A stretch of DNA of 64,000 nucleotides, taken from positions 96,001 through 160,000 of the forward strand of contig CAXXKA010000005.1 in assembly GCA_963668625.2 (NCBI GenBank), read 5' to 3'. Positions within the stretch are counted from its first letter, which is position 1, and the number at the start of each line of letters is the position of its first letter. Of this stretch, positions 1 to 49,367 are shown piece by piece. The notes under the pieces were generated by a model, which worked only from the letters and a program-made list of their open reading frames with translations, was not told where the DNA came from and searched no databases. The position numbers were made by a program, and so were the translations under genes. Source of the stretch: an uncultured candidate division Zixibacteria bacterium (GTDB taxonomy: Bacteria; Zixibacteria; MSB-5A5; UBA10806; 4484-95).

Positions 1-340
1 CGAGCCCTGGTTTTATCGTATCCTGACAAATATCTGCCGCGATAAATTACGCAAGCGAGGCCGGTTTGCCGATTTCAAAGACCGTTTTCAGCAGGAGAAA
101 TTAACCGAACTGGGTAGCGCAAAAGCCAAAGTCAAACCCGATACCGAGTTGTTCACTCGGGCATTGCAGAAATTAGATCCTGATAAACGAGAGGTAATAA
201 TACTCAGGTTTAACCGGGATCTCAGCTACGATGAAATTGCCAGAGCGCTCGATATAAGTCCGGGTACAGTGATGTCGCGCCTTCACAGGGCTAAAAAGGA
301 ACTTGAAAAAATCTTTAAGATAATGGGGATAAAACCGTAA
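1..340 (+). CDS. ECF RNA polymerase sigma factor (5' truncated by window edge)
   Basis: Frame is open from position 2: EPWFYRILTNICRDKLRK (region 2) ... REVIILRFNRDLSYDEIARALDISPGTVMSRLHRAK (region 4 HTH). Confidence 0.92.
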   Translation, partial: EPWFYRILTNICRDKLRKRGRFADFKDRFQQEKLTELGSAKAKVKPDTELFTRALQKLDPDKREVIILRFNRDLSYDEIARALDISPGTVMSRLHRAKKELEKIFKIMGIKP

Positions 341-1374: not shown

Positions 1375-1404
1375 TAAAAAAGCCCTTGCATCATGCAAGG
1401 GCTT
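1375..1404 (-). terminator. Intrinsic terminator (U-tract on minus strand, possibly bidirectional)
   Basis: Perfect stem AAGCCCTTGCA-tga-TGCAAGGGCTT running into a T-tract on the minus strand. Confidence 0.8.
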
Positions 1405-1610
1405 AAGAAGCTGTGAGACCAAAATGACATGATCCTCTGGAGGGGGTAGAGGACCGATCACTCTCCCGGCTCACAGCAATTTTCAAGAATGTTCTTTATT
1501 TTTGACTTGTCGTAATTTTCGTTTCTCTACCCCTGACTAAATTTTACTACACCTCAATAGGTTCAGCAGTCCCGAGTTATTCCGAGGATGAGTAATATCC
1601 CACCCCAATG
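1375..1610 (-). ncRNA. Candidate small RNA of unknown family
   Basis: Bounded by a TTGACA-17-TATATT promoter and an intrinsic terminator; long hairpin 1410-1477 with loop ACCCCCTCC; no convincing ORF with RBS inside. Confidence 0.55.
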
Positions 1611-1615
1611 GCGAT

Positions 1616-1644
1616 AATATAAGTATAAGTGGCCATACTGTCAA
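1616..1644 (-). promoter_or_regulatory. sigma70 promoter
   Basis: TTGACA gtatggccacttatact TATATT (17-nt spacer) on the minus strand. Confidence 0.75.
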
Positions 1645-1676
1645 GAGAAGTTTTCTAATCTTTTTCATTTTCAGTA

Positions 1677-1820
1677 TTATCGCCTCTCGCTACTCTTTTG
1701 GTTACGATATTGGCTTTCGAACGCCTTTTTAAACCTTGATATTCTCTCCTCAAGTACGATATTAGGATCTCTCGAGAAGTTGGTCTGGCTTTTCATTGTT
1801 TTGCTGTCCACATTTGACAT
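1677..1820 (-). CDS. Putative 47-aa small protein
   Basis: AGGAGGG RBS 5 nt before ATG, 20 nt after the protease stop codon; MSNVDSKTMKSQTNFSRDPNIVLEERISRFKKAFESQYRNQKSSERR. Confidence 0.5.
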   Translation of the reverse strand: MSNVDSKTMKSQTNFSRDPNIVLEERISRFKKAFESQYRNQKSSERR

Positions 1821-1840: not shown

Positions 1841-3610
1841 CTATTTAAGGTACAACATCTTACTAATAATGCTATGTTCGTCGAATTTAACCCGGTAGAA
1901 ATACACTCCTGTGCTAACATCACCGACTCTTGTATCCACTCCATCCCAGTCTATATTATGATATCCGGCGCTCAATCTGCTGTTACACAGATTTTCAACC
2001 AGTCTGCCGTTAATGTCATAGATATCAACTTCCACATCGGAGTCTGCATATAGCAGGAAACTAATCGTGGTCTGGGCATTAAATGGATTAGGATAATTAT
2101 TATATAATTCCGCTTTTTCAGGAATCAGGTATTTGTCATCATCGATATACTGCGGACTACCGATTGCAATATCGGCAGTCATAGTGCTTAATGAATTACT
2201 GATATTAGTTATCGATACGTTAGTAGGATCGCCGGCGTAGCTATTCGAATTCGGCGTACTGATATCGTTAAACGTTCTATTATCGGTTGAACCGGGGAAG
2301 GGATCACCTGAATCGCCCTGATCTATCCCATGCTCCAACTCCCAGAGCTGATCAGCCGGTTCAACGGCCACTAAATAGTGCGAGCTACCCGAGCCGGGCC
2401 ACCACTCGTCATCATTATCACTGCGGTTATCATCAATATGATAAACCATCAAACCGCTTCCCGGAATATATGAATCGTAACCTGTCTTTTGACGGTTTTC
2501 AACCAGAAAATATTCATTACCGGGAAGACCGTTTGTCCAAATCTTATATATCGTACTGTTATTTTCCGAGTTAGGAATAGACAATCCTGTTTGATTGGAA
2601 CTCAGTACGGTCGGCGTAACGAATCCTAACTGTATTTTGCACCAGGCATCGAAATGCGCCGGGCTGCTACCGAGATAGCCGTTCCAACTTCCGCCCGCCA
2701 TGATACTCCATTTGCCTACGCCCTCGGAGGAGTAGTCCGTATCGTATAAGTCGGGTAAACCTAATACGTGCCCCAGCTCGTGGCAATAAACACCGCATGT
2801 CATATCACCGGCCGATACCCAATATTCCGGCTGCATCGAATATGTGTATGCGTATACGCCATCCACATACCGGGGCGAGATTGCCCATTTGTGCGACCAG
2901 ATATCATTATTGCTGCCGGTGTATTCCGCGCCCGGTCCGGCATGAACCACAACCAGGCCATCCACGAAACCATCCGAGTCATTATCGAAATCAGAGAAGT
3001 CCACATAAGGATTGACCAGGTCAACGGCGTCCTCAACCAGTTTCTGGGCGTTCTGAGGATATGATCCTAGGCCGTTCTGGCTATTGCAGTAATAGGCGTA
3101 TGTCTGGGACGGTTGTTTCCAACCGATGTCGGAGGGTAATATTACGGTAGTGAGATTCAGTGTGTTGTACGAAACCTCCTTATAATAATTATTAACCGTT
3201 CCGGTTTGATCGACATACATGAGCGTATCGAAAAATAGGTCAGGTACCGAGGCCTTTTTATCGGAGAAATTAATCAGTATAGTCAGGACATTTATATTGC
3301 CCGATGCCACCGATTTGGCCAAGCTATTATTCGAGCGGTTCAGCCCGGCCTGGGAATGGGGAGAATTTCCGGCAGTGCCAACGCCCCTGGAAAGGAGTTC
3401 CTGCCTGTGGTTAAGGTAGTAGGAATCGGCAAATCTGTCGCTTGCGATTTTACCAAGGGCCTCACCCATGTATGGCGGCGCCGAGGAAGCAATAACCGGC
3501 AGCGAAACCGCAATCAGCAACGCTGTCAGGATGCTCAGTTTGACTTTCTTTCTTTTGATCTCTATCATTGCCGTTATCCTTTTCAGAGACGTTAGCGTTT
3601 TACTCATCAC
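1841..3610 (-). CDS. M6-family (immune inhibitor A-like) metalloprotease with T9SS/FlgD-like C-terminal domain
   Basis: HELGHVLGLPDLYD, WSIMAGGSW, EYFLVENRQ; signal peptide; C-terminal NNYPNPFNAQT...GVYFYRV...KMLYLK. Confidence 0.9.
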   Translation of the reverse strand: MMSKTLTSLKRITAMIEIKRKKVKLSILTALLIAVSLPVIASSAPPYMGEALGKIASDRFADSYYLNHRQELLSRGVGTAGNSPHSQAGLNRSNNSLAKSVASGNINVLTILINFSDKKASVPDLFFDTLMYVDQTGTVNNYYKEVSYNTLNLTTVILPSDIGWKQPSQTYAYYCNSQNGLGSYPQNAQKLVEDAVDLVNPYVDFSDFDNDSDGFVDGLVVVHAGPGAEYTGSNNDIWSHKWAISPRYVDGVYAYTYSMQPEYWVSAGDMTCGVYCHELGHVLGLPDLYDTDYSSEGVGKWSIMAGGSWNGYLGSSPAHFDAWCKIQLGFVTPTVLSSNQTGLSIPNSENNSTIYKIWTNGLPGNEYFLVENRQKTGYDSYIPGSGLMVYHIDDNRSDNDDEWWPGSGSSHYLVAVEPADQLWELEHGIDQGDSGDPFPGSTDNRTFNDISTPNSNSYAGDPTNVSITNISNSLSTMTADIAIGSPQYIDDDKYLIPEKAELYNNYPNPFNAQTTISFLLYADSDVEVDIYDINGRLVENLCNSRLSAGYHNIDWDGVDTRVGDVSTGVYFYRVKFDEHSIISKMLYLK

Positions 3611-3617
3611 TCGTTAA

Positions 3618-4886
3618 TTAAAACCTGAGTCCCATAGCGAAACCGAAATCTATGCCTTTCGTCGCGCCGGGATTGAACGAGCCGTTATTAGCTATCGCGA
3701 AATCGATTTGATAGGGGCCCATATATATACCGAAACCGGTGGCTAAAATCGTTCCCCGGTCGCCACCGAAAGAACTACCCAACCTGAGCGGCAGGAAACC
3801 TACCGGTTTATATTCCAGACCGGCGCTTATTCGGGGATTAACCGACTGTGAAGCGCTGCTTCTAACGCCCTGTTCCCAATCGATTGCCCAGGTAAGTTTA
3901 TTATAGGCTCTGGAAAGACCCAGTTTAAGAACGGGGGAGACAGTGGTCGAAAACGCCTCGGTATCGTAGGTGGTATCGCTTGACTCGACCAGTGAATCGG
4001 AATCGTCATCGGCGATATTATCGAAATTGATGGGCTCGGTAAATTCGAACGTGAATACTGTTTCTTCGGGTTGACCGTTCCAGTTTATCTTCGAATACAG
4101 GTTCTGATAACTGGCCGAGAAAACCCAACTGTTCTCGAATATCATGGCCATGCCAATGTCCATACCATAACCCTGGCCGCCAATACACTGGCGAATCGTC
4201 ATGGTACCGTCACCGGTGAAACCGTCATCGGTAGTATTAACACCACCCTCGGCGTTGATAATTTTCTGATAGGCCGCGCCATAGAAAAAGTGAGCGGTCG
4301 CGCCTACAGCCAGTTCACCGCCATCCCACTTTTTAAGAGGATGACCATACGACAGGGCGGCATCGCCTATACCGTAAGCTTCGCCCTCGGTTTCACTCAA
4401 ATCAACCTCAGATTTGACGGCGTTGCCGTAGAGAAACAACTCGAACGGATCTTTGTCGAGGCTGAGTTTCGAGGCGCCCAGGGTTCTGAAAGACATAGCC
4501 ACTCTGTTGACCGAGAAACTAAGAACATTTGCCTCGGTAATGAAATCAAGCTGCAAGCCCTCGTTCGGAATTTTATCCAGAATCGCTTTCTTGTCGCCGT
4601 TATCCAGAAACTGGCCGTTGTACGTATTGTAATCCGCCAGCGAGAAACTGTTATTCTTCAGGCTCAAACCGACTCCCACGATATCCAGCGAGAAAGAGCG
4701 GTTGTTGGAAAGGCCGAGATTAGCCGGGTTGTAGGCTGTCGCCTCAAGCCCGGTGCCCAGCGCCGTGTAGGCGCCGCCCATAGCCATCGCACGCGGGTGC
4801 GACTGACCCCAGGCGAATATCGGGCCGGAACTGAGCAGTATGACACTCAGTACCGCTATCGTTATTTTAAAAGTTGAATTTCTCAT
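3618..4886 (-). CDS. Outer-membrane beta-barrel protein (FadL/PorV/DUF5723-like)
   Basis: Signal peptide; PRAMAMGGAYTA..YNPANL hatch motif; amphipathic strands; terminal F (FGFAMGLRF). Confidence 0.75.
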   Translation of the reverse strand: MRNSTFKITIAVLSVILLSSGPIFAWGQSHPRAMAMGGAYTALGTGLEATAYNPANLGLSNNRSFSLDIVGVGLSLKNNSFSLADYNTYNGQFLDNGDKKAILDKIPNEGLQLDFITEANVLSFSVNRVAMSFRTLGASKLSLDKDPFELFLYGNAVKSEVDLSETEGEAYGIGDAALSYGHPLKKWDGGELAVGATAHFFYGAAYQKIINAEGGVNTTDDGFTGDGTMTIRQCIGGQGYGMDIGMAMIFENSWVFSASYQNLYSKINWNGQPEETVFTFEFTEPINFDNIADDDSDSLVESSDTTYDTEAFSTTVSPVLKLGLSRAYNKLTWAIDWEQGVRSSASQSVNPRISAGLEYKPVGFLPLRLGSSFGGDRGTILATGFGIYMGPYQIDFAIANNGSFNPGATKGIDFGFAMGLRF

Positions 4887-4899
4887 TTATTTCCCCTCC

Positions 4900-6921
4900 T
4901 TAATTTCCATTATTATCTTCCCAGAGATGTTCTCCGGCATTGACTGAAAGCCTGGCGGTAGCCGATATCGTGAAATAATCGCCGCCGCTTATATAGCTGC
5001 CTGTTGTCGGCAGAAGCTGCACCTTTGGCGCTATGAAAAATTCCTCGCTCTCGAACACCGAGATTTCCTCGGAGGTAAGCGAATCGCTGAATACCGATAT
5101 AATCTCTTCGATCGCATAACCATCGGTATCAGTGGTAGCGCTTTCCAGAATAAACGGACCGATAATCAGCGAACGAGGATCGGTGTAAATCCTGTCGTCA
5201 TCATAGTAACCCATATAAAGAGCCACTTTCATGCCCACCGGTAGATGGCTTGTCAATTGGGCGCGCACGGTGCCGTAATTGAATGTCTCATCGAAATCAG
5301 GAGAATCATCACCGGCGCCCTCGGCATCGGTTATCTCCAGATCGAGAGTCGAAGTATCAGCCAATGAAAATGCCAGCGGCGAGTAAATCTCTACCGTCCC
5401 GAAGAAGAAATCATCCTTATGGATATAGACCGAATCCGCGTTGGCAGGATTCATGATTGCTATACCGGTAATATTGATCTGCTCTGGAGTCGGGCTTAAG
5501 AACGAGCTTAAGGCAAGCGAGGATATTATAATCTCGGTCTCCTCAGGTTGGCTCAATGAGAGGCCCTTACCATGCACGGTATCCTGTACGACTACGTTTC
5601 TGGTACCATCCTGGTTTGCCAGAAGCATATCCACGAACACATCGGAGGTGGAGTTGTTATACAGGGTCATACGCATTTGGGCGTGAGTTAATGTGGCATC
5701 CTCGAAACCGTCGGGGACATCGACATCCTCGCTCATCGGATCAATGGTGATCTCGGTAGGCTCGATCTGTCCGGTTATGGACTCGAATGTAATATCTGAA
5801 ACATCCGCGATGACTTTCAGCGAGTCGGTGGCGTTAACCTGGTATTTTAATGGTGAACTATCCTCGATATCAGCGGTAACTCCAATAGTTACTGTCTGGG
5901 GTGAGGTAGCGCCATCAGGCGTAAGGTTGTAGCCATTAAGGTTGATATTTCTATAGACAGTCGAATTTCCGGCAATGGCTTCCGAAAGCGAAAGTGCCGT
6001 ACTATTCAACTCGAAATTCGGAAATAACATATCGAGATTCATTGGCAGACTCGAGCCGTTGACTATCTGTATAGTCATCGTACCCTGATCGATCACCGAT
6101 TCATATATGATCGACTCATCAGCCATATCTATTATTTGATCGAGATTCTTAGTGAATGCGGGAATCTCGGCTAATGCGCTCGATACGGATATGCCGCCGG
6201 GGAATGATGTCGAAATAACCAGATCATTCGAAGGCAAGCTTATCTCCTGAGCCAGAACCGTACCGTAAGTGCGAAGAGTTAATGAATTTTCCACACGTTC
6301 ACCGGCCAGATCGAGTTGACGGCTCAAGGTTTGATTGTCGGCAATACCATTTTCGAAAATTGCAGCGCTTAACGGTGTGCCAAGATCGGATGAATTATAT
6401 ATCCATACAACCAGCGAATCGATATCGGCGCCGATATCGTTAGCGACTTGAACCTCTATTACTCCTTCATGGATTTCAGCCCAGTCGAAATTATCGATAT
6501 TGCTCATTGCCCTGGAACGGTTAAACGAGGTATCGACCGGTACGAAATTAGCCACATTCGGTACACCTAGATCGGCCATACTGAATGTCTCCGGATCGAT
6601 TGTCGGCGAATCGATATCCACTATATCCAGCGAATCCTCGTAGGTCTGATTGATACCATCGGCGCTGAGATTATCCTCAACCGATACTGTATCAACATCC
6701 TGTGTGATAGAGAACGCCGGATTGCCGAGACTATCAAAGATGATATCCTCGGTATCCATCTGGTCTACCAGGTCCTGGATATCATAAGTCTTGTTGGTTA
6801 ATGGTAAATCCCAGGATGTTTCCCAGGTTGGCGCCTGGGGCTCCTGAATAGAACAACCGCTAAAAATAAACATAGCGGCCAGAACTAATACTAGCCCGAG
6901 TTTAAATTGGACTTTTCTCAC
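4900..6921 (-). CDS. Large acidic beta-rich lipoprotein of unknown function
   Basis: Lipobox FSGC after a hydrophobic N-terminus; strong RBS; 673 aa. Confidence 0.75.
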   Translation of the reverse strand: MRKVQFKLGLVLVLAAMFIFSGCSIQEPQAPTWETSWDLPLTNKTYDIQDLVDQMDTEDIIFDSLGNPAFSITQDVDTVSVEDNLSADGINQTYEDSLDIVDIDSPTIDPETFSMADLGVPNVANFVPVDTSFNRSRAMSNIDNFDWAEIHEGVIEVQVANDIGADIDSLVVWIYNSSDLGTPLSAAIFENGIADNQTLSRQLDLAGERVENSLTLRTYGTVLAQEISLPSNDLVISTSFPGGISVSSALAEIPAFTKNLDQIIDMADESIIYESVIDQGTMTIQIVNGSSLPMNLDMLFPNFELNSTALSLSEAIAGNSTVYRNINLNGYNLTPDGATSPQTVTIGVTADIEDSSPLKYQVNATDSLKVIADVSDITFESITGQIEPTEITIDPMSEDVDVPDGFEDATLTHAQMRMTLYNNSTSDVFVDMLLANQDGTRNVVVQDTVHGKGLSLSQPEETEIIISSLALSSFLSPTPEQINITGIAIMNPANADSVYIHKDDFFFGTVEIYSPLAFSLADTSTLDLEITDAEGAGDDSPDFDETFNYGTVRAQLTSHLPVGMKVALYMGYYDDDRIYTDPRSLIIGPFILESATTDTDGYAIEEIISVFSDSLTSEEISVFESEEFFIAPKVQLLPTTGSYISGGDYFTISATARLSVNAGEHLWEDNNGN

Positions 6922-9729: not shown

Positions 9730-9801
9730 GCCCCCGTAGCTCAGTGGATAGAGCATCGGCCTCCGGAGCCGTGTGCGGCCGTTCGAGTCGGCCCGGGGGT
9801 A
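9730..9801 (+). tRNA. tRNA-Arg(CCG), CCA not encoded
   Basis: Cloverleaf GCCCCCG/CGGGGGT, D arm GCTC..GAGC, anticodon loop CT-CCG-GA, T loop TTCGAGT. Confidence 0.95.
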
Positions 9802-49216: not shown

Positions 49217-49222
49217 CTGGAT

Positions 49223-49336
49223 GTCTTCAGGGTGAGGCGAAAATCCTCGACCGGCGGTTAAAGCCCGCGAGCCCCAATATTGGGGTTGAACCTGTGAAAT
49301 TCAGGCGCCGACGGTATAGTCCGGATGGGAGAAGAC
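49223..49336 (+). ncRNA. FMN riboswitch (RFN element)
   Basis: GTCTTCAGGG..ACCGGCGGT..AAGCCCGCGAGC..GTGAAATTC..GCCGACGGTATAGTCCGGATGGGAGAAGAC, upstream of ribD. Confidence 0.95.
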
Positions 49337-49367
49337 GAGTTCAGGTGTTATACCTGTATATTCGTAT

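Follow-up and report, generated by a model that had tools for sequence, protein, structure and literature searches.

The window, the 64,000-nucleotide stretch of a Zixibacteria genome (G000) analysed here, carries near its start a short unit on the minus strand, made up of a promoter, a variable stretch, a two-tier hairpin and an intrinsic terminator. Upstream of it lie a microprotein gene and an M6-family metalloprotease gene; facing it is a plus-strand gene for a TonB-C protein (340–1350), convergent with the RNA. In order of transcription, the features of the unit and of the genes upstream are:

4900–6921, minus strand: gene for a 673-aa protein without family, upstream of the M6 peptidase gene
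3618–4886, minus strand: gene for a DUF5723/TraF-like protein that weakly matches PorV/PorQ, upstream of the M6 peptidase gene
1841–3610, minus strand: gene for an M6-family metalloprotease with a T9SS C-terminal sorting domain (domain match; operon context)
1677–1820, minus strand: gene for a 47-aa microprotein with a GGAGGG ribosome-binding site, upstream of the RNA (conserved core ...ERIxRFKKAFxxxW...)
1537–1668, minus strand: 43-aa open reading frame (ORF), decayed homologue of a lipoprotein gene, without a Shine–Dalgarno (SD) sequence and with Trp in place of the lipobox Cys
1639–1644, minus strand: −35 hexamer TTGACA, which together with the −10 hexamer matches the consensus promoter at 11 of 12 positions
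1616–1621, minus strand: −10 hexamer TATATT, separated from the −35 hexamer by a 17-nt spacer (promoter match; alignment of relatives)
1609, minus strand: predicted transcription start, an A 7 nt past the −10 hexamer (promoter geometry)
1478–1608, minus strand: variable, non-conserved 5′ region, remnant of a small-lipoprotein coding sequence (BLAST; comparison of homologues)
1525–1533, minus strand: GGGGUAGAG, complementary to CUCUACCCC at 1451–1443 (duplex)
1468–1477, minus strand: 5′ arm of the outer helix (fold and 24-sequence covariation)
1448–1459, minus strand: 5′ arm of the inner helix, GAUCGGUCCUCU (fold and 24-sequence covariation)
1439–1447, minus strand: apical loop ACCCCCUCC, with the invariant part CCCCCUCC (24-sequence alignment)
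1430–1438, minus strand: 3′ arm of the inner helix, AGAGGAUCA (fold and 24-sequence covariation)
1410–1420, minus strand: 3′ arm of the outer helix (fold and 24-sequence covariation)
1375–1404, minus strand: intrinsic terminator with an 11-bp stem (1404–1380), a 3-nt loop and a U-run (window sequence; covariation of helix 3)

The genes at 3618–4886 and 4900–6921 may belong to the same T9SS-related operon as the M6 peptidase gene. Strong GGAGG-type sites are found upstream of the neighbouring genes.

TTGACA-17-TATATT at 1644–1616 is the only 11/12 promoter match between positions 1000 and 2200. From the A at 1609 to about position 1376 on the minus strand, the predicted RNA is about 233 nt long. 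Folded as a 238-nt RNA (1612–1375), the sequence reaches −77.6 kcal/mol (z = −3.47); of 200 shuffled sequences, not one folds as well. Both the minimum free energy (MFE) and the centroid structures of the window RNA retain the hairpin. On the minus strand, the core of its outer stem pairs GCUGUGAG (1477–1470) with CUCACAGC (1417–1410), and that of its inner stem pairs GGUCCUCU (1455–1448) with AGAGGAUC (1438–1431). At 1404–1375, a GC-rich stem-loop is followed by a U-run and shows compensatory conservation. The initial annotation of this DNA, made from the letters alone, had described a self-contained unit of promoter, RNA with a long hairpin, and strong terminator; all of its elements are present on the minus strand at the coordinates listed above.

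The same annotation regarded the RNA as undescribed, and comparison with Rfam 15 agrees with this. The comparison covered every Rfam 15 family, including 6S RNA and RsaE/RoxS, at the gathering threshold: the window gave an FMN riboswitch and a tRNA only, both elsewhere in the window, and ten homologous loci gave no match. A permissive scan of positions 1200–1900 returned ncS54 as its best match (25.7 bits against a cut-off of 43), with only the terminator aligned.

Conservation of the promoter and of the hairpin

The 4.3-Mb genome contains 66 exact copies of TTGACA-16..18-TATATT, against about three expected from base composition; TTGACA-17-TATATT is thus the organism's consensus promoter and no chance match. 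Two RNAs of known families in the window served as internal controls. The FMN riboswitch (49219–49340, plus strand, 103 bits) has an identical TTGACA-17-TATATT upstream, and the tRNA (9730–9801, plus strand) is preceded by TTGACT-17-TAATAT. On contig C6 of the same genome, five near-identical copies of the consensus promoter together with ~40 nt of downstream sequence lie at ~799592–814148, and a separate set of three such copies lies at ~625595–630452. Such sets point to tandem families of genes or RNAs under similar promoters.

Conservation of the locus was followed in 24 genomes of the order, ten from family f1 and fourteen from family f2, which represent 11 genera. A sigma-70-type promoter lies at the equivalent place, just after the microprotein gene, in all 23 assessable genomes (f1 10/10, f2 13/13); the fourteenth f2 genome stands outside this count, as a contig end cuts its promoter. 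Among the ten f1 genomes, the −35 hexamer is TTGACA (8) or TTGCCA (2), the −10 hexamer is TATATT (7), TATCTT (2) or TAAATT (1), and the spacer consists of 16 or 17 nt of unrelated sequence. The thirteen f2 genomes have TTGACT (10) or TTGACA (3) as the −35 hexamer, a 17-nt spacer, and AATCAT (10), CATCAT (2) or ATTCAT (1) as the −10 hexamer. Even genomes without an ORF at the locus retain both hexamers. Because the hexamers are kept while the spacer sequences vary freely, they form a promoter footprint. In one genome (G005), promoter and hairpin are just 34 nt apart; the long 5′ part of the RNA is therefore dispensable.

The promoter read by the initial annotation at 1644–1616 therefore agrees with the consensus of the whole genome and is conserved wherever it can be assessed. 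Judged from these sequences, the RNA is likely to be transcribed independently from this promoter. A look through listed sequencing runs returned no RNA run with this stretch, only three runs of unrecorded kind from one study. A further point stands against an independent gene: read-through from the microprotein gene would carry the hairpin as a 3′ UTR too, and it is possible because no terminator is present in the window between the microprotein gene and the RNA promoter.

BLAST similarity in relatives covers the 3′ ~115 nt (hairpin and terminator) and ends at ~1491; the 5′ part is unmatched. The top of the hairpin is found in seven public contigs, recorded as Candidatus Zixiibacteriota (three), "uncultured Ignavibacteria" (three) and "uncultured bacterium" (one), and all seven named records are metagenome-assembled genomes. 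A covariance model of the hairpin and terminator (R1) was built from eight sequences and run over 151 genomes sampled evenly across the phylum. Full-length matches were returned only in f1 (4/4, plus G000) and f2 (6/6). The model also gave 16 weak matches outside these two families; the five that were aligned (L029–L032, L041) all arose via the terminator only. Within the order, R1 finds exactly one match per genome, in 24 of 24 genomes and 11 of 11 genera.

In the alignment of these 24 sequences, 93.2% of cells are standard pairs, compared with 74.3% after shuffling, and none of 500 shuffles reaches the observed value. Controls with slid partners drop to 43–54% pairing. Both sides have changed in 23 of the 31 pairs. 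The outer helix (helix 1) has changed on both sides in 10 of 11 pairs and is almost wholly rebuilt between families f1 and f2. The terminator (helix 3) has done so in 9 of 10 pairs, with 96.1% of cells paired; the inner helix (helix 2) has 95.8% of cells paired. One G.U wobble in helix 2 is kept in all 24 sequences, and since an invariant G.U can pair on that strand only, the strand of the RNA is fixed as minus. While the stems vary, CCCCCUCC is identical in every sequence (alignment A4). The hairpin and loop that had been drawn from one sequence are thus found, conserved and covarying, across the order.

This stretch of the window is almost certainly a real conserved structured RNA, as the comparative evidence indicates. 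Its functional part, as marked out by the alignment, is the 3′ module: the two-tier hairpin with the invariant CCCCCUCC loop, with the terminator directly after it. The RNA is a member of no described family; it is a new, previously undescribed small RNA (sRNA) family of one Zixibacteria-like order.

The microprotein and the lipoprotein reading frame

The order of the locus is constant among these genomes: a T9SS-tailed gene (found in homologous loci wherever the printed flank reached it), the microprotein gene, the promoter, the variable stretch, the hairpin and the terminator. The microprotein gene adjoins the RNA in 23 of 24 genomes. In the remaining one (G009), the RNA is kept and the microprotein gene is, by eye, a decayed remnant without a profile match. 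The sole conserved part of the microprotein is a basic segment of ~18 residues (...ERIxRFKKAFxPxWL...), and comparison of the protein with Pfam, NCBIfam and Atlas gave no family or lead.

A profile search of 201 genomes of the phylum found weaker homologues of the microprotein in families f8 (8/8), f18 (9/10) and f12 (1/4); the other twelve families sampled had none (e.g. f9, 0/73). Structured stretches also lie downstream of the homologues in f8 and f18:

L074:842–962, L075:836–957, L077:804–925 and L079:800–923, minus strand: hairpin RNAs of f8
L082:687–809, plus strand: hairpin RNA of f8
L076:648–854 (plus strand), L081:745–966 (minus strand) and L083:745–1028 (plus strand): structured stretches of f18

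The conserved hairpin RNA of f8, ~120 nt long, is different from that of the window. Its outer stem, GUCGCCAAG/CUUGGCGAC, also serves as the terminator, and six C residues (C6) but no CCUCC are found in its apical loop, ACACCCCCC. Against Rfam, the f8 loci gave only TPP riboswitches, which lie farther downstream, a few hundred bases past the f8 RNA on the same strand (L074:399–498, L077:190–305 and L079:194–306, minus; L082:1250–1358, plus). R1 finds no match in the f8 RNA with filters off, and a search with the hairpin core as an nhmmer profile gives E > 1; common descent with the window RNA is therefore only a possibility, one suggested by position and a loose resemblance. If the two are related, the anti-SD core discussed below would not be an ancient feature. 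In f18, a stretch of 200–285 nt after the microprotein homologue is closed by GUCGCC.../...GGCGGC, and no obvious C-rich apical loop was seen in these stretches.

The variable 5′ region, between promoter and hairpin, ranges from 34 to ~190 nt among homologues. In 12 of 24 genomes, it is filled by an intact lipoprotein gene of 52–70 aa; these belong to f2 genera g6, g7, g8 and g10 and to f1 genus g2. A GGAGG site and a lipobox (...AGCGAK.PT...) mark the intact gene, whose stop codon lies 2–18 nt before the modelled element. Differences at codon positions 1/2/3 number 12/5/23 between the same-length orthologues of G003 and G007, and 5/5/17, 4/7/22 and 3/4/11 in three pairs from genus g7. Where intact, the lipoprotein ORF is, judging from its sequence, a real coding sequence. 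The other 12 genomes have lost the ORF or keep it only in decayed form, and they retain the hairpin, terminator and promoter.

The initial annotation saw no credible ORF in the RNA, a statement that needs a qualification. A 43-aa ORF does cross the promoter (1537–1668), but it is decayed, as described above. In the congeners G001 and G002, the frame and length of the ORF differ from those of the window's. A coding reading of the 43-aa ORF was rejected.

Where the lipoprotein gene is intact, it is entangled with the promoter. Genus g2 has the promoter hexamers within the codons for the signal peptide. In f2, the promoter spacer contains the ribosome-binding site of the lipoprotein gene, whose start codon overlaps the −10 hexamer. 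As the promoter overlaps the start of the lipoprotein gene, transcripts from this promoter could not encode the lipoprotein; from this layout, its translation would need read-through from the operon.

The RNA appears to have originated at the 3′ end of the mRNA for a small lipoprotein and to have outlived the coding sequence. The ORF between promoter and hairpin persists in half of the lineages; in the other half, the window genome among them, it is gone or decayed. In the window, the unit closes a conserved operon, and a decayed lipoprotein gene makes up its 5′ half, which the initial annotation had missed; the RNA thus derives from a 3′ end and is no orphan gene. Features expected of a 3′-UTR-derived RNA are found here. 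The 3′ end and terminator are common to a protein-coding transcript, and at the sequence level the promoter lies within or just behind an upstream ORF, with the hexamers present in all 23 assessable genomes.

The C-rich loop and competing explanations

The 16S rRNA of this genome ends in ...GGAUCACCUCCUUUCU, so the loop repeats the CCUCC anti-Shine–Dalgarno core. The conserved, unpaired C-rich motif is CCCCCUCC, which is apical in the hairpin in 24 of 24 genomes. The loop would be the functional end of the RNA. The unpaired UCCC or C-rich motifs of RsaE and RNAIII bind SD sequences and block the formation of initiation complexes (PMC2790875). By analogy, the exposed loop of the Zixibacteria RNA would pair with the G-rich ribosome-binding sites of target mRNAs (GGAGG to GGAGGGGG) and would thereby block translation initiation on them. 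Its action would be independent of Hfq, like that of the sRNAs with UCCC or C-rich loops in Firmicutes. Hfq was not found in G000, a genome that is 95.9% complete; CsrA is encoded there. A CsrA-sponge RNA was considered and rejected: multiple GGA motifs in loops are absent, and the one conserved purine arm, RGARGAU, lies in a stem and is without GGA in several homologues (e.g. AGAAGAU).

Scans of G000 for targets of the loop gave negative results, which are weak because gene starts were called crudely. GGAGGGGG occurs 69 times in the genome against 71 expected, with no enrichment, and just 10 of these 69 sites precede a start codon as crudely called. Duplexes of the loop with 6729 crude start regions were no better than those of the reversed loop, a weak control since it is itself C-rich. 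The best predicted duplex of the loop lies inside a gene for a 256-aa protein and not at a start. No enrichment for loop pairing was seen among 204 crude ORFs with a T9SS-tail motif (p = 0.57). These 204 ORFs, with [YF]PNPF[NS] near the C-terminus, would amount to an unusually large predicted T9SS secretome for 4.3 Mb.

By analogy with the motifs of RsaE and RNAIII, pairing between the loop and G-rich ribosome-binding sites is plausible and the most economical reading. That the RNA acts in this way, the translational-repressor role suggested by the initial annotation, is put forward tentatively; more broadly, it probably regulates translation. We assign a probability of about 45% to the overall explanation, in which the RNA would be an sRNA of ~230 nt with a 3′ hairpin module, an origin from lipoprotein mRNA and a loop that acts in the manner of an anti-SD sequence.

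Two other explanations keep the conserved hairpin and change its role; both are unlikely. The element might be a purely cis-acting part of the 3′ UTR of an operon of peptidase and microprotein (with or without lipoprotein), with no separate RNA gene. The hairpin would shield the 3′ end of the mRNA or fold back on the ribosome-binding sites of the operon. The element does always stand at the 3′ end of the same operon, it begins 2–18 nt after the lipoprotein stop where the ORF is kept, and no terminator separates it from the microprotein gene. However, a consensus promoter with a free spacer stands directly upstream in 23 of 23 genomes, even in those without an ORF, and the element is still there after loss of the lipoprotein ORF (12 of 24 genomes) and after decay of the microprotein gene (G009). 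By inspection, the lipoprotein SD of f2 (GGAGGG) can form 6 bp with the loop; pairing to the SDs of the operon is, at this same length, no longer than ordinary 16S pairing. The invariant loop might instead be a protein site, possibly for the basic microprotein encoded upstream, in a small ribonucleoprotein. A strictly invariant 8-nt loop on freely changing stems is typical of protein sites too and would suit a protein ligand just as well as an RNA partner. The proposed partner is encoded next door in 23 of 24 genomes, conservation within it is confined to the basic segment, and its homologues in f8 (8/8) and f18 (9/10) also precede structured RNAs. Yet the microprotein matches no known RNA-binding family, and G009 keeps the RNA without a match to the microprotein. 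CsrA, the other protein considered, is present, but several homologues have no GGA in the conserved arm.

The remaining two explanations fare worse still. The initial annotation had also proposed a two-state switch, in which GGGGUAGAG would alternately sequester the loop and the 5′ arm of the hairpin. The 9-bp complementarity between 1533–1525 and 1451–1443 is real: in G000 the duplex reaches −18.4 kcal/mol, against a mean of −11.8 kcal/mol for shuffled sequences, and 2% of shuffles attain this value. It is the switch itself that is not conserved. At the 5% shuffle level, comparable pairing is seen in 1 of 23 homologues (G000 only), and at the 10% level in 2 of 23; the 34-nt leader of G005 holds no G-rich partner, and the MFE and centroid structures hold the hairpin. 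A riboswitch-like sRNA of this kind is very improbable. Hardly credible at all is a locus with no RNA function, in which a decaying lipoprotein pseudogene would simply end in an ordinary terminator, or a peptide (...PPPED...) would be encoded across the hairpin. The 5′ half is indeed the remnant of a gene, and ORFs reading G-P-L-P-P-P-E-D occur in several genomes. The presence of the element in all 24 genomes, with compensatory stem changes, speaks against both versions. The peptide is ruled out because the third positions of its proline codons, which would be free if coding, are invariant, and because the C-run has five or six residues (C5 or C6) by lineage, a difference of one base that would shift any frame; nor do these ORFs have a common start.

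Relation to known small RNAs and biological meaning

With RsaE/RoxS and RNAIII of Firmicutes, the Zixibacteria RNA has in common an invariant unpaired C-rich motif in a hairpin loop and, as proposed here, an action on ribosome-binding sites (PMC2790875). There is no homology in sequence or structure to these RNAs, in line with the lack of an Rfam match. The Zixibacteria RNA has a single C-rich loop and not several; its loop of 8 nt contains the full CCUCC anti-SD core, and it belongs to an unrelated, uncultured phylum.

Other comparisons concern origin and target choice. sRNAs of the MicL/DapZ type derive from 3′ UTRs and are transcribed from a separate promoter within or behind the upstream gene. 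The Zixibacteria RNA resembles them in having a terminator in common with a protein-coding operon, a conserved regulatory 3′ end, and a promoter at or inside the preceding ORF (in the signal-peptide codons in g2, at the start codon in f2). It differs from them in that half of the lineages retain the RNA without its parental ORF. Nor is it a proteobacterial Hfq system. RepG of Helicobacter pylori pairs a C/U-rich hairpin loop with a G-rich stretch in mRNA leaders. A C/U-rich loop that is proposed to pair with a G-rich leader stretch is the point of likeness; the two RNAs are not homologous, and the scans of G000 identified no G-repeat target. Our best guess is that the Zixibacteria RNA acts like the C-rich-loop sRNAs and arose like the 3′-UTR-derived ones.

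A search of full-text literature found no small RNA described for Zixibacteria. To our knowledge, the phylum itself is known only from metagenome-assembled genomes. The RNA described here, found throughout an order in single copy, would be a regulatory RNA defined purely by comparative evidence.

A wider picture is offered as speculation that we consider improbable as a whole. The microprotein and the RNA might form an ancient module of Zixibacteria. The mRNA of a tiny lipoprotein would have given rise to the RNA, whose promoter was set in the signal-peptide codons, and the RNA would have outlived the coding sequence repeatedly. It would now serve as a free copy of the anti-Shine–Dalgarno sequence that tunes strongly SD-dependent mRNAs, perhaps together with the basic microprotein. 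The RNAs of f8 and f18 would be remodelled versions of the same module.

The locus displays a clear evolutionary route from mRNA to non-coding RNA, in that stages with an intact ORF, a promoter-overlapped ORF and a decayed ORF are all seen among the genomes of the order. If the anti-SD reading is true, the C-rich-loop mechanism of Firmicutes would extend to a distant phylum, one that has the T9SS in common with Bacteroidota and appears to be without Hfq.
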